In this document: piece after piece, positions 46,515 to 50,108 of the stretch
How positions within the stretch are numbered: the first letter of the stretch is position 1
How the letters are laid out: the number at the start of each line of letters is the position of its first letter
NCBI GenBank assembly: GCA_902825875.1
Contig: CADECP010000005.1
Coordinates: 50,168 to 114,167 of the forward strand
Origin: an uncultured Acidobacteriota bacterium
GTDB taxonomy: Bacteria > Acidobacteriota > Blastocatellia > RBC074
DNA length: 64,000 nucleotides
Direction: 5' to 3'
Made by a program: the position numbers and the translations under genes
The notes under the pieces: generated by a model
Told to the model about the DNA's origin: nothing
The model's input: the letters and a program-made list of their open reading frames with translations, nothing else
The model's database searches: none

Positions 46515-46588
46515 TGGAGCTAAGGGGGCTCGAACCCCTGACCTCTTGACTGCCAGTCAAGCGCTCTTCCAAGCTGAGCTATAGCCCC
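46515..46588 (-). tRNA. tRNA-Ala (anticodon GGC)
   Basis: Reverse complement GGGGCTATAGCTCAGCTTGGAAGAGCG..CTTGACTGGCAGTCAAG..GGTTCGAGCCCCCTTAGCTCCA. G3:U70 pair present, anticodon loop CTGGCAG, CCA not encoded. Confidence 0.85.
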
Positions 46589-46860
46589 ACAATGGAATAT
46601 CTAAATGTCTGAGAACGCGCCTTCGTCGAAGGCGCGGGCATATTAGCCAACCATCCTTTTTCCGTCAACCGGTCATCGGCAATTGTTGTTAAAGTGAGTT
46701 GGGAACAGCAATGAGTTTGCGCTGGCGGCACTGCTTAAGCGAATCTTCTGCAGTCAAAGGCAGGTATAATTGCTCGCAAACAGGAACACCGGGCTGCGAG
46801 CAAATTTTTACATCGTTGCATTTCTTTTTTTTCAAGAGCAGCAATTTAGCGAAATTTTCC

Positions 46861-48774
46861 ATGACCGGTACGATCACCGTAGAAATGGACGGCGATAAAC
46901 AAGTCAATTTTACAGGCTCTATTCCAAGCGCAACACTGACGGCCAGCCCTAATCCGATTCAGGTTTGCGATGGCACGGGACAGGGCATTACCACGTTGAC
47001 CTGGAACGTTACCGGCGCTGGCGCAAGCTCCGTTCAATTGCGAGCGGGCGCGCCCAACGGAACGCTTGTCGCCAGTGGCGGAACCAGCGGCAATGTCACA
47101 ACCGGAAAATGGGTGACCAATGGCACGGTCTTTTATCTGCAAAACGTCACTGGCGGTTTGCCTTTGACTTCAGAACACACACTGGCCACTGTCACAGTCG
47201 CCACCACCACACAAGGCTGTCCGCCGCCCGCCAGCTTTAACAAGACCATCAATTACGCTCGCAACAACACCGGCGTCGTTTCCGGTATCGGCACAAACCT
47301 GATTGGCAGCGACCCGAATGCGACGACCAACGTGGCTTCGGCGATGACTTATCGAGCCTGGAACGCATACCGAAGCATGAATTTCGGCAACGGATTGCGA
47401 GTGACCAACACGCATAACAACCGAATGCAACTGACCAGTTATGTCGTTGACGCTCAGAACGGCTCTTCGACGTTGTGGCAACAACATTACGATTATTACA
47501 ACGGAGGGCAGAACAACAGCCGAATCCGCCGGGTTTCGGATACCGCCAATTTTGCCGTGTACAAGCTTTACCAATACGACCCATACAATCGGTTGCAAAC
47601 GGTGCTGAATTCCAACAGTTCCAACTGGCACGCCGGATACACCTACGACGAATGGGGAAACATCCGCACGATCAATTCCGCTGCGGGTGGCGGAGGCACG
47701 CTGACTTACCAAACCAATTCGACCGGAGCGCCAACCAACCGGCTGGCCACGGCAGGCGGCAACAGCGTCGGTTACGACGCGGCGGGAAACATGACCGCAA
47801 TGGGCAGCACGACGTACAGTTACGACGCCGCCAACCGGTTGAAAGCCACCGCCGGAGCTTCCAATCAGTACGGCTACGATGGCGACGGCAAACGAGTCCG
47901 ACAACCTGGGTTGTATTACGTCCAGTCCTCGGTGCTCGACAAAGTCGCCATGGAAATTGACGCCAACGCCAACGTCCAGCGCGCTTACGTTTACCTGAAC
48001 AACAAACTGATCGCGTTGCAGAGCACCGACGGCAACTTTTACTGGGCGCATACCGATCACCTGAACAGCGGTCGCATGTTGACCAGCACCGTTGGCAGCA
48101 TGGTCTACCGAGCCGATTTCGACCCATTCGGACAACTGACTTACGAATGGTCGGCGTCGGGGAACACCAATTTGAACAGCCGCAAATTCACCGGCTTTGA
48201 ACGGGATGCGACGGGGCTGGATTATGCTCAAGCCAGGACGTACACGTCCGGCTGGGGGCGATATATGCAGTCCGACCCAATGGGAGCAGGCTATCGCGGT
48301 AAAAAGCCGAATCCGATGGGCGCAGCGAGCGTTAAACTTCCGCAAAGCCACAATCGCTACAGCTATGTTGGGAACGATCCAATGACTCTGACCGACCCTT
48401 CGGGGTTAGCTATAGACCCATGCTGTGTCTGCCCCGGACACGGTGAGGGCTGCGAGGGAAGGGAGGCTGTTTGCCCCACCGGCGGCGGCGATGGTGGTGG
48501 TGGTGGTGGTGCGTCTGAGGGATACAGTCTTTCCTGGTATCAGAAAGTCGCCCAATCTGCCACTGATAAGTCCATGTGCCTATATAGAAATATCTGTAAA
48601 ACTTCCGTAAGATGTCCTGGGAATGATGAATATTGGAGAAAATGCCTAGCAGGTGACTACTTACGCTTTACTTCCCTTTGGACAAAAGTTTATGGATCTA
48701 GGTACTGTAGATTAAAGGGTAGCGCTGATTCCTCATCGGATACGCCTGGCAGTTGCGGAGATTTTGATTTGTAG
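46861..48774 (+). CDS. Short Rhs/YD-repeat polymorphic toxin with DPxGL cleavage motif and Cys-rich variable C-terminal domain
   Basis: YD repeats (YDAAGN, YSYDAANRL, YGYDGDGKRV). Rhs core GRYMQSDPMG...YVGNDPMTLTDPSGL. About 120-aa Cys-rich tail with GC drop. Start set at MTGTIT (ORF track opens at 46699). Confidence 0.75.
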   Translation: MTGTITVEMDGDKQVNFTGSIPSATLTASPNPIQVCDGTGQGITTLTWNVTGAGASSVQLRAGAPNGTLVASGGTSGNVTTGKWVTNGTVFYLQNVTGGLPLTSEHTLATVTVATTTQGCPPPASFNKTINYARNNTGVVSGIGTNLIGSDPNATTNVASAMTYRAWNAYRSMNFGNGLRVTNTHNNRMQLTSYVVDAQNGSSTLWQQHYDYYNGGQNNSRIRRVSDTANFAVYKLYQYDPYNRLQTVLNSNSSNWHAGYTYDEWGNIRTINSAAGGGGTLTYQTNSTGAPTNRLATAGGNSVGYDAAGNMTAMGSTTYSYDAANRLKATAGASNQYGYDGDGKRVRQPGLYYVQSSVLDKVAMEIDANANVQRAYVYLNNKLIALQSTDGNFYWAHTDHLNSGRMLTSTVGSMVYRADFDPFGQLTYEWSASGNTNLNSRKFTGFERDATGLDYAQARTYTSGWGRYMQSDPMGAGYRGKKPNPMGAASVKLPQSHNRYSYVGNDPMTLTDPSGLAIDPCCVCPGHGEGCEGREAVCPTGGGDGGGGGGASEGYSLSWYQKVAQSATDKSMCLYRNICKTSVRCPGNDEYWRKCLAGDYLRFTSLWTKVYGSRYCRLKGSADSSSDTPGSCGDFDL

Positions 48775-48959
48775 TTGTTGTACTTCTACGCAAGTTGGCG
48801 GGTAAAAATAACCACCTTAGGAAAATCGCTTTGAGCCGGTAAATTGCTATTGCGACCAATTCTTCAGGTTAGATTAGCTTTGCTCGCCAACTTAACTTAA
48901 TTGGAACCTCAGATTTATATTCAGCAGATAGCTATTAAAGCTACTGCAAGGAGATTGCT

Positions 48960-49829
48960 ATGAAGACAATTAGCCGATTAGTTAGTTTGGTAATGGTGAT
49001 TTGTTTAACTCAGATTGCATTTACCCAGCATAAGTTATTAAACGATCTCAAACGCGAGGGGATACTAGGAGAGTTACATACAGTTAAAACAGTAAAAATA
49101 CCAGTGTCGCCAGCAGGCGTTGAGCTTAAAAGCTACCAGCCTACCAGTTGGCAAATTACCATTTATAACCGTGTTGGCAACAAAGCTGAAGAGCAATATT
49201 TCAATGATCTTGGGGTGTTGATCGAGAAGAAAATCTTTAGCTATAGCGCTTCGGGAAAATTGACTGAAGTTATCGCATACAACACGGATGGCTTAGTTAT
49301 AGATAAAATTCGCTATATATTCAATCTGAAAAAGAATGAAATCGAGGAAGTGCATTTGGATGGCAAAGATAAATTTATGTATAAAAATATCAGAGCATAC
49401 AACCAACAAGGGAAACCCATTAAATTCACTCAGTATGATGGTCAAGGTGTGATTACCAGTGAGACAATTATCAGCTACGATGCAACAGGAAAACTTATTG
49501 CTTCTGAAAATCACACTTTTCCTGACGGCGTAAGAACAACCGACAAAATAACCTATATCTATAACAACCACCTTAGTCAAACTGAAGTAAATTTCTTTGA
49601 CTCAGCCGGCATTCGAACAAATAAAATCGTTGCGTTCAAAAATCGCGACGGAGCCGATATTAGGATTAAGGAATATAATGCAAAGGATGATTTAGTAAAT
49701 GTAAGGCTAATTGTTCATACGCTTGACTTAATGGGGAACTGGATTACCGAAAAGACATTTCTGGAAAATCCACAGAATGGCTCAGCTAAGTTGATAGAGG
49801 TAACTAATCGAGCCATCACCTATTACTGA
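48960..49829 (+). CDS. Very AT-rich secreted protein with YD-like repeats (candidate immunity/accessory protein of the Rhs module)
   Basis: Signal peptide. Repeated xYNxxGKxIxxxxYDxxG units. GC far below surroundings. AAGGAG RBS. Confidence 0.5.
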   Translation: MKTISRLVSLVMVICLTQIAFTQHKLLNDLKREGILGELHTVKTVKIPVSPAGVELKSYQPTSWQITIYNRVGNKAEEQYFNDLGVLIEKKIFSYSASGKLTEVIAYNTDGLVIDKIRYIFNLKKNEIEEVHLDGKDKFMYKNIRAYNQQGKPIKFTQYDGQGVITSETIISYDATGKLIASENHTFPDGVRTTDKITYIYNNHLSQTEVNFFDSAGIRTNKIVAFKNRDGADIRIKEYNAKDDLVNVRLIVHTLDLMGNWITEKTFLENPQNGSAKLIEVTNRAITYY

Positions 49830-49842
49830 ACTGAAGACTATC

Positions 49843-50108
49843 ACGAGTTTGGACAAAATCCGGCTCAATGGGTGATGGTCTGAGCGGAGAAGTCTTTTGG
49901 GCACACCACCGGCGTGTGGTTGACTCAATGCAATTGGGACTTTCCCTCGAGTTTGCACGAGATCACACTGCATCCAGACTTGCACGAAAGTCCCAACCTT
50001 TCAGATCAGTCCCGATTGACGGGGATCTGCTGAATTGAGAAGACTTACGAGTCAGAACTCGGGCCAGCCCCTGAACCGGCAATGACTCGGAAGAGCCGTT
50101 TTTTTGTC
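49843..50108. repeat. MITE-like structured noncoding element bounded by perfect 17-bp inverted repeats (cacgagtttggacaaaa / ttttgtccaaactcgtg)
   Basis: Seen directly. Interior has further stems (gggactttc...gaaagtccc) and cacga[ag] motifs. Confidence 0.45.

Follow-up and report, generated by a model that had tools for sequence, protein, structure and literature searches.

A modular pattern of toxin and immunity protein is known for Rhs and contact-dependent growth inhibition (CDI) systems (PMC3150448, PMC3482391). Orphan modules of an rhs C-terminal region (rhs-CT) and an immunity gene, which carry neither initiation nor export signals, have been described, and recombination can return them to activity (PMC3150448, PMC3967940). 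Sec-dependent RHS toxins and ankyrin immunity proteins are also on record (PMC3482391). In this study, we analyzed a 64-kb stretch (64,000 nucleotides; the window) of contig CADECP010000005.1 from an uncultured Acidobacteriota bacterium, and in it an rhs gene beside tRNA-Ala(GGC), the open reading frame (ORF) that follows it (ORF2) and a short inverted-repeat element. With a probability of about three in four, we read the region as the remnant of a chromosomal Sec-dependent Rhs polymorphic-toxin locus, located in a variable tRNA-Ala(GGC)/aroA slot of a soil or freshwater Acidobacterium. The locus is largely ordinary, a decaying toxin locus at a recombination hotspot, with an unusual and uncharacterised payload. 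Sequence comparison points to three new elements, namely an orphan Cys-rich tip, an orphan exported repeat protein and a conserved Cys-rich linker of an acidobacterial Rhs family.

The closest described systems are the orphan rhs-CT/rhsI modules of Enterobacteria (Dickeya dadantii and Salmonella Typhimurium LT2; PMC3150448, PMC3967940). As in these modules, the rhs gene of the window appears 5'-truncated and keeps the core, the DPxGL motif and a unique C-terminal region. Export signals are absent, the putative immunity gene downstream has expression signals of its own, the G+C content (GC) of the C-terminal region and immunity gene is below that of the gene body, and sister alleles differ by C-terminal displacement. 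Unlike the enterobacterial fragments, it is not located 3' of a main rhs gene and would be the main gene of its locus minus the 5' two-thirds. It is also long (637 codons) and keeps an immunoglobulin-like (Ig-like) module and about 400 amino acids (aa) of shell. Its parent system appears Sec-dependent and not linked to type VI secretion (no PAAR or VgrG), and its putative immunity protein is apparently exported. The second reference group is the Sec-dependent YD/Rhs toxins, such as Bacillus subtilis WapA and the 'T2SS/Sec' (type II secretion/Sec) RHS class (Zhang et al. 2012; PMC3482391, PMC4436062). The full-length relatives of the window gene share with them the signal peptide, YD shell, core, variable C-terminal region and partner gene, and ankyrin-repeat immunity proteins are a known class. 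In contrast to WapA-type systems, the host is a diderm Acidobacterium, so the protein would have to cross an outer membrane to reach a target. The tips differ from those of known Sec-dependent RHS toxins in being 80-110 aa long with 6-21 Cys and in matching no Pfam toxin family, a conserved CCxCPGH...CEGR...CPTGGG linker follows DPSGL, and the window copy has lost its signal peptide. Compared with a complete deliverable Rhs toxin, the window has the YD repeats, the core with DPxGL and the polymorphic C-terminal region, and it lacks a secretion determinant and a full-size shell.

The sole related locus from the reference-genome collection was L011, from the metagenome-assembled genome (MAG) 'Acidobacteriota bacterium bins.235' (GCA_033763255.1). 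Its left neighbourhood is that of the window, with UbiA, a GAF-SpoIIE phosphatase, AhpC and a hypothetical protein of 388 aa, then a minus-strand tRNA-Ala. What comes after tRNA-Ala(GGC) in L011 is an Rhs ORF of full length (1,800 aa) with a Sec signal peptide. The intact allele of about 1,800 aa opens with the signal peptide. A first stretch of YD shell (about 1,000 aa), a CarboxypepD_reg domain and the Ig-like module come next, then a second stretch of shell (about 400 aa) and the Rhs core with its DPSGL motif, and the protein closes with a Cys-rich/poly-Gly linker and a short tip that is likewise rich in Cys. The Sec-type signal peptide is MRFFRSPSLRVTFITVVTFSLMLSLSFSLRRANA in L005 and similar in L011 and L003. 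In blastn comparisons, L011 1159-6204 was 97.0% identical to window 41829-46874, and L011 10005-11644 was 87.0% identical to window 46874-48512. The 3,800 bp between them in L011 (6205-10004) are missing from the window, and homology resumes in frame inside the gene. These 3,800 bp include the -10 element, the signal-peptide segment, the poly-C tract and the 1,154 codons for the ~1,000 aa YD shell and CarboxypepD_reg. The junction lies in the spacer of the promoter-like sequence TTGACC-17-CATATT upstream of rhs in L011, and the ATG at 46861 is the former -35 hexamer, with TTGACC mutated to ATGACC. Independently of L011, the 1,733-aa protein P0121 showed 90% identity over window residues 54-596 (P0121 residues 1089-1631), and its homology starts at window 46870-46874. 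A tblastn search with full-length P0121 found no further Rhs-like sequence in the window (46870-48480 only). These results indicate that the window gene is the C-terminal third of a Sec-exported Rhs of about 1,800 aa. We regard it as a 5'-deleted remnant and not as a natural short Rhs because an intact allele sits at the same site in the closest relative. The original prediction had described a short Rhs without an N-terminal trafficking domain; the length of 637 aa and the missing signal peptide stand, and the natural shortness does not.

The divergence between the alleles was then considered. Between the window and L011, the ratio of non-synonymous to synonymous substitution rates (dN/dS) was 0.046 with a dS of 0.66 over 538 common codons. 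Since this dS is far above the 3% divergence of the flank, the fragment appears to be a different, older allele and not a recent derivative of the L011 gene. In the window lineage, 7 private codon changes were non-synonymous and 57 synonymous. These values indicate that the fragment evolved under purifying selection, without signs of decay, and because of the 7 versus 57 private changes it seems to have decayed little or to have been truncated recently. We propose that a 3.8-kb deletion, or illegitimate replacement by a foreign allele, fused the promoter spacer to codon ~1,155. The last 637 codons would have survived, with only about a third of the shell and without the signal peptide or a recognisable promoter. 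A replacement of this kind, by imported DNA, may have taken place instead of a simple deletion.

The retained part of the gene has the expected Rhs features. The Rhs frame is open on the plus strand from 46699 to 48774, and ATG 46861 gives 637 aa. The gene caller's start at 46711 gives 687 aa, and its extra 50 N-terminal codons are translated leader DNA. The ORF matched the TIGR03696 Rhs-associated core with 51.9 bits (cut-off 32.5), and YD/RHS repeats were detected by PF05593 (24.6 bits, cut-off 22) and TIGR01643 (18.8 bits, cut-off 15.8). The core ends in DPSGL at 48394-48408, and thus both the Rhs core and the DPxGL motif of the original prediction were recovered. The N-terminal 196 aa had no Pfam match and no signal peptide or trafficking domain. 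No Shine-Dalgarno sequence precedes ATG 46861, and the consensus scan found no plus-strand promoter-like site upstream of it. The Cys-bracketed module (PNPIQVCDG...YLQNVTGGLPLT...C) is shuffled among secreted acidobacterial enzymes. It occurs in tandem in secreted acidobacterial S8 proteases, matrixin-like proteases and glucose/sorbosone-dehydrogenase-like proteins (P0011, P0013, P0020, P0036 and P0050).

Other relatives also carry rearranged rhs genes, and such rearrangements appear to be common in this lineage. An internal deletion in L003 (7950-10349) joins the first ~250 aa to the middle of the Ig-like module, and P0002 is internally deleted. L004 has two tandem truncated rhs-CT modules (51-1076 and 2368-3768), and in L132 (3511-7700) Rhs is split into overlapping ORFs of 651 and 752 aa. 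In three independent alleles, all full-length or nearly so, the signal-peptide segment and the Rhs body are separated by a homopolymeric C tract, 12 nt long in L005 (485-496), 11 nt in L011 (6526-6536) and 8 nt in L003 (7937-7944). None of these alleles has its signal peptide in frame with the body. The tract, which falls within the part deleted from the window, could reflect phase variation, slippage or a homopolymer assembly error. The features of the window are listed in Table 1.

Table 1. Positions of the features at the tRNA-Ala/aroA slot (window coordinates; TIR, terminal inverted repeat; TSD, target-site duplication; MITE, miniature inverted-repeat transposable element)
Feature	Position	Strand	Evidence or remark
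tRNA-Ala(GGC)	46514-46588	minus	ARAGORN; Rfam RF00005 65.4 bits
Promoter-like site TTGACG-17-TAATAT reading into the tRNA	46640-46668	minus	Consensus scan, weak
Strain-variable islet	46673-50830	.	blastn of L006/L008 against the window, gene maps, tRNA positions, junction sequences
Apparent retained upstream non-coding leader of the ancestral rhs	46673-46873	plus	97% identity to L011
Putative 5'-truncated rhs fragment, 637 codons	46861-48774	plus	90% aa identity to P0121 residues 1089-1631
Putative deletion/replacement junction	46872-46875	.	L011 blastn and junction sequence; P0121 homology start
Cys-bracketed ~100-aa module 'PNPIQVCDG...', presumably beta-rich	46930-47229	plus	Pfam: no model
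C-terminal remainder of YD shell and Rhs-associated core (GRYMQSDPMG ... NRYSYVGNDPMTLTDPSGL)	47233-48408	plus	PF05593, TIGR03696, motif positions
Cys-rich poly-Gly pre-tip linker (AIDPCCVCPGHGEGCEGREAVCPTGGGDGGGGGG)	48409-48512	plus	Conserved; sister homology ends inside
Allele-specific tip, ~85 aa, 6 Cys, 42.7% GC, putative toxin payload	48513-48771	plus	No homologue
Promoter-like site TTAACT-18-TATATT upstream of ORF2	48892-48921	plus	Consensus scan, weak, not above shuffled
ORF2, 289 aa, putative exported immunity partner	48960-49829	plus	GC 37.5%
Left TSD copy ACTAT, 5 bp	49837-49841
277-bp MITE, 17-bp TIRs (CACGAGTTTGGACAAAA), conserved internal hairpin	49842-50118	.	TIRs, TSD, other copies
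Right TSD copy ACTAT, 5 bp	50119-50123
183-aa outer-membrane beta-barrel (OMP) gene	50205-50756	plus	PF13505 31.6 bits
aroA (EPSP synthase), right flank of the islet	50794-52122	minus	PF00275 E = 1.9e-117; boundary 50831

We next examined the region after DPSGL, a tail of 121 aa with 11 Cys and 20 Gly. GC falls from 68% in the linker to 42.7% in the part specific to the tip; the Rhs body has 56%. The linker pattern DPCC[VA]CPGH..CEGR..CPTGGG is conserved in the window, L005, L011, L004a, P0122 and P0129. When the tail was searched exhaustively with phmmer in 1.84 billion representative proteins, P0121 and P0122 alone were returned, over tail residues 1-46 only, and the tip (the ~85 C-terminal aa) had no homologue. 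A word-indexed search of the tail was discounted because it missed even P0001, the protein itself, and the exhaustive search was used. The tail had no match in Pfam, PDB, PADLOC or PHROGs. A single-sequence AlphaFold2 prediction of the tail had a mean pLDDT confidence of 31.4 and was not usable as a model. A frameshifted sister tip was considered as the origin of the tip and rejected, since tblastn and blastp found no similarity to sister tips in any frame. The tail had been called unfamiliar, which holds for the last ~85 aa; the first 46 aa, in contrast, belong to the conserved Cys-rich linker of the sister alleles.

The extent of the variable segment was determined from the sister alleles. 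Homology with L005 stops at 48497 and resumes at 50168, and homology with L011 stops at 48512 and resumes at 50801. The left exchange breakpoint therefore lies at 48497-48512, within the poly-Gly-coding run of the linker. Together with the drop in GC, these breakpoints bear out the earlier view that the Cys/Gly-rich tail ends in a swapped tip. Four unrelated tip types and a fifth distinct tip (P0129) were found among the close relatives. Type A, which is hydrophobic with 19-21 Cys, occurs in L011, L004a and P0122 and is followed by a TIGR03436 VWA gene in L011 and L004, which are independent loci. Type B (L003 and L004b) is followed by a conserved small ORF, the L005 tip by an ankyrin protein with a signal peptide, and the window tip by ORF2. 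The gene right after the tip co-varied with the tip type in every sister allele examined; the partners are 272-354 aa long and two have signal peptides, these being the ankyrin and VWA partners. In the window, L011 and L005, the three alleles compared, the tip-and-partner cassette was poorer in GC than the Rhs body. These results indicate that the tip, ORF2 and the MITE form a cassette that appears swapped relative to the sister alleles. Tip and following gene would have been exchanged between alleles through the poly-Gly-coding linker.

ORF2 has the lowest GC (37.5%) in the profiled 42-54 kb stretch, as expected from its earlier description as very AT-rich. An AAGGAG sequence lies 7 nt 5' of its ATG, and the chance of a random open frame of its length is about 3e-10. 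The protein contains 7-8 repeats with a period of 26 aa that resemble YD-like beta-hairpins. Its Pfam matches to RHS_repeat (17.4 bits, cut-off 22) and DUF2963 were both sub-threshold. A search of 5.8 billion proteins returned ORF2 itself only. Nothing was found in NCBIfam, PADLOC, PHROGs or plasmids (tblastn), PDB matches were at chance level, and there was no significant match to curated immunity families (Imm-ank, SUKH, YwqK/MORN etc.). The single-sequence AlphaFold2 prediction had a mean pLDDT of 38.7 and was not usable as a model. A signal peptide and YD-like repeats had been considered unusual for an immunity protein. ORF2 has the YD-like repeats and a signal-peptide-like segment, but a signal peptide is not unusual here, as the sister ankyrin and VWA partners also have one.

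We investigated the borders of the variable segment in other relatives, since the original prediction had pointed to the tRNA-Ala/aroA junction as a possible islet. In L006-L009, the 4.2-kb islet is swapped for about 91 bp, and tRNA-Ala and aroA are about 135 bp apart. Their aroA shows at least 90% protein identity to that of the window, with DNA identity of 82-88%, and aroA, tRNA-Ala and a 372-aa orthologue of the 388-aa ORF of the window are all directly adjacent. Because these loci carry about 91 bp instead, the segment 46673-50830 was defined as a strain-variable islet, as anticipated. Homology with the islet-free L006 stops at 46672, just past the tRNA promoter-like site, and at the other side the final ~12 aroA codons fall within the variable segment. 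The OMP gene is a member of the islet; it lies 3' of the Rhs cassette in L005 and is absent from L006 and L011. The slot was found in four states, which are empty (L006-L009), full Rhs with a VWA gene (L011), full Rhs with ankyrin and OMP genes (L005, where the left flank differs and sequence was recovered up to the OMP gene) and truncated Rhs with ORF2, the MITE and the OMP gene (window). Such a range of states is typical of rhs rearrangement hotspots, in which homologous recombination via the flanks brings about the exchange.

The biological role of the cassette was considered next. Mainly because the modular co-variation of tip and partner matches the toxin-immunity pattern of Rhs and CDI systems, we read the tip as payload and ORF2 as its partner. 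As the tip is Cys-rich, the parent Rhs is Sec-exported and the sister tips are paired with exported partners, the 85-aa tip would be a putative toxin payload acting outside the cytoplasm. ORF2 would be its exported immunity protein, probably with its own promoter and ribosome-binding site, and could still protect against kin delivering this tip. Both the toxicity of the tip and the immunity function of ORF2 are inferred by position and analogy. The truncated rhs product is probably not delivered; the fragment would be a young pseudogene or an orphan rhs-CT module, for which recombination with a full-length rhs is the only route back to activity. A broader proposal, tentative and rather doubtful at present, is that the 85-aa tip and ORF2 are a new toxin-immunity pair and form, with the sister tips, a lineage-specific class of small disulfide-rich Rhs payloads. 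Such a class would have the CCxCPGH...CEGR...CPTGGG pre-toxin linker, Sec-exported delivery, envelope or extracellular action and exported partners of differing folds (VWA, ankyrin and YD-like beta-hairpin repeat).

Several observations weigh against reading the locus as the remnant of a toxin-immunity system. The clean 637-codon ORF, its in-frame ATG and its strong purifying-selection signature make residual function possible. In P0008 (731 aa, 2 MAGs), a similar short YD-plus-core part is coupled to an FG-GAP N-terminus, and because this architecture exists, a short shell alone is no proof of inactivity. The Rhs part is 87% and the flank 97% identical to L011, which means that a simple in-situ deletion is not the whole history. 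No main rhs gene lies near the fragment in the 64-kb window, unlike in the classical orphan arrangement. The promoter-like calls are consensus matches whose frequency was not above that in shuffled sequence, and the N-terminus of ORF2, a basic n-region followed by a hydrophobic stretch, was judged signal-peptide-like by eye. As neither the tip nor ORF2 has homologues, their proposed pairing is by position and analogy, and no second locus with both was seen. Part of this would fit a 637-aa protein that is a functional, naturally short Rhs, an intracellular toxin made from ATG 46861 in a toxin-antitoxin (TA)-like module, or a complement of a separate shell half as TcC is of TcB. The same allele was seen in two samples, in which ORF2 is identical, a Salmonella orphan Rhs acting as a type II TA-like module is on record (PMC7043789), and the split Rhs of L132 and the short YD-plus-core part of P0008 would agree with such a protein. 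We nevertheless consider it distinctly unlikely. The ATG arose from a point change in an ex -35 hexamer of non-coding DNA and has no Shine-Dalgarno sequence, the -10 is deleted with no plus-strand promoter-like site left upstream, and there is no signal peptide or N-terminal domain. The nearest relative has the 1,154 missing codons of shell in its allele at this site, and an apparently exported ORF2 could not neutralise a cytoplasmic toxin. The purifying signal, moreover, is expected if most of the divergence (dS 0.66) predates the truncation. A 5'-deleted remnant is thus preferred for the rhs gene.

The remaining alternatives concern the partner and the mode of acquisition. ORF2 might be an unrelated, horizontally acquired secreted or surface beta-hairpin-repeat protein, with the true immunity gene lost or elsewhere. 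In GC, ORF2 is lower than the tip-specific part, and the two are 185 bp apart, with a separate promoter-like site in the spacer. A 289-aa repeat protein is large for a typical Rhs immunity protein, and without ORF2 homologues there are no co-occurrence statistics. This explanation appears unlikely to us, given that the next gene changes with the tip type in every sister allele examined and that these partners are similar in size to ORF2 (272-354 aa), two of them with signal peptides. ORF2 is also within the same swapped block as the tip relative to both L005 and L011, it lies on the same strand, and it is the one candidate ORF located after the tip and before the OMP gene. The original prediction had placed the Rhs gene directly downstream of tRNA-Ala, as a classic island integration site. 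A tRNA-targeted genomic island, integrated site-specifically at tRNA-Ala with Rhs, ORF2 and the MITE as cargo, would account for a 4.2-kb presence/absence polymorphism right beside the tRNA, for the low GC of part of the segment and for the mobile DNA inside it. The arrangement proved different. The tRNA is on the minus strand and points its 5' end at the islet and its 3' end leftwards, at the 388-aa ORF, and Rhs is divergent on the 5'/promoter side. As had already been noted, there is no integrase and no attachment duplicate: the ORF list of the islet holds no integrase or recombinase, no tRNA-derived direct repeat longer than 13 nt occurs within 15 kb, and the junction sequences show no repeats at either border, including the right one in the last aroA codons. 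Low GC is limited to the tip, ORF2 and the spacer between them, while GC in the Rhs body is 56% and in the OMP gene 55%, in line with the window and genome (53%). The contents vary cassette by cassette, as homologous exchange at an rhs hotspot predicts. Site-specific integration is therefore highly improbable, and homologous exchange at a hotspot is favoured.

The inverted-repeat element downstream of ORF2 was analyzed separately. The inverted repeat is an 18-nt perfect match of 49841-49858 with 50102-50119, with 243 nt between the arms, and the element was inserted 8 bp past the ORF2 stop codon. It is single-copy within the window, which contains no transposase gene. The 16-mer CACGAGTTTGGACAAA occurs in at least 120 metagenome contigs, a part of which is expected by chance, and many of the ends bearing it share a conserved subterminal sequence in differing flanks. 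In L035, L057 and L087, inverted TIR copies lie 1.5-1.6 kb apart around a 452-481-aa DDE transposase. This transposase matched NF041680 with E = 1e-62 and 212 bits and IS701 more weakly; since 212 bits is below the cut-off of 440, the parent insertion sequence (IS) is only a distant relative of the curated family. L047 holds a complete 277-bp element with the same TIRs, conserved internal hairpin blocks and the TSD TATTAA, and L031 and L033 hold one-ended copies with L047-like subterminal sequence in different flanks. Target duplications were also found in L087 (TTCCA) and L035 (GGCGAA). In bins.235, a full-length IS copy interrupts a VWA gene fragment by aroA, and the contig ends within the copy. 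These results indicate that the element, suspected earlier to be MITE-like, is a genuine MITE and a non-autonomous derivative of a widespread IS701/NF041680-like IS family. As in the IS701/IS4 superfamily (NCBIfam NF041680) and its MITEs, its 17-nt TIRs are identical to those of the 1.5-1.6-kb transposase elements, the target duplication is 5-6 bp, and the element is small and non-coding with a stable hairpin and copies at unrelated sites. Unlike the parent IS, its interior is unrelated except for the TIRs and a few internal blocks. The 277-bp MITE of this IS701-like family was a later insertion, 3' of ORF2, which duplicated ACTAT, and it has no demonstrated link to the toxin system. A structured RNA had been considered, as the element folds with z = -6 on both strands; this was rejected once the TSDs, other copies and parent IS were found, and Rfam matched only the tRNA in the element and the whole region. 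An even smaller IS derivative was seen in L091 (4026-4085), a 60-bp palindromic mini-element with two IS terminal repeats around a GC-rich hairpin.

Other differences were observed around the slot. The 388-aa ORF (45322-46488) by the tRNA 3' end had no Pfam or NCBIfam match, and a gene of 371-388 aa sits at its position in L001, L006-L008 and L011. A metallo-beta-lactamase (MBL)-fold gene with a Pfam match to Anti-Pycsar Apyc1 (~55855-56850, minus strand) is present in the window and in bins.235. It is missing between the ECH and TetR genes of the L006-type relatives, a second small presence/absence difference. In bins.235, a complete aroA lies on one contig, and a 506-bp aroA 3' fragment, 86% identical to it, lies by the Rhs locus. 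The sequence after this fragment is found about 22 kb away and inverted in the window (L011 13368-16901 and L010 10811-11696, compared with window 25608-28583 and 50801-51306). This arrangement reflects either an inversion/duplication at the islet border or a bin mixing two strains.

Taken together, the short Rhs appears to be a truncated remnant and should not be treated as a new minimal Rhs architecture. To our knowledge, competition systems have barely been studied in Acidobacteriota. The set of loci is a snapshot of rhs-locus turnover, with an empty site, a full gene, a truncated gene, swaps through the poly-Gly linker and IS/MITE insertions. The tip/ORF2 pair of the window has no relative in the public data searched. 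Our comparison suggests that uncultured Acidobacteriota carry Sec-dependent Rhs loci with short Cys-rich payloads that match no known toxin family and with partners that differ and are often exported. If these tips are extracytoplasmic toxins, polymorphic-toxin biology would gain a new class of payload as well as new immunity folds.

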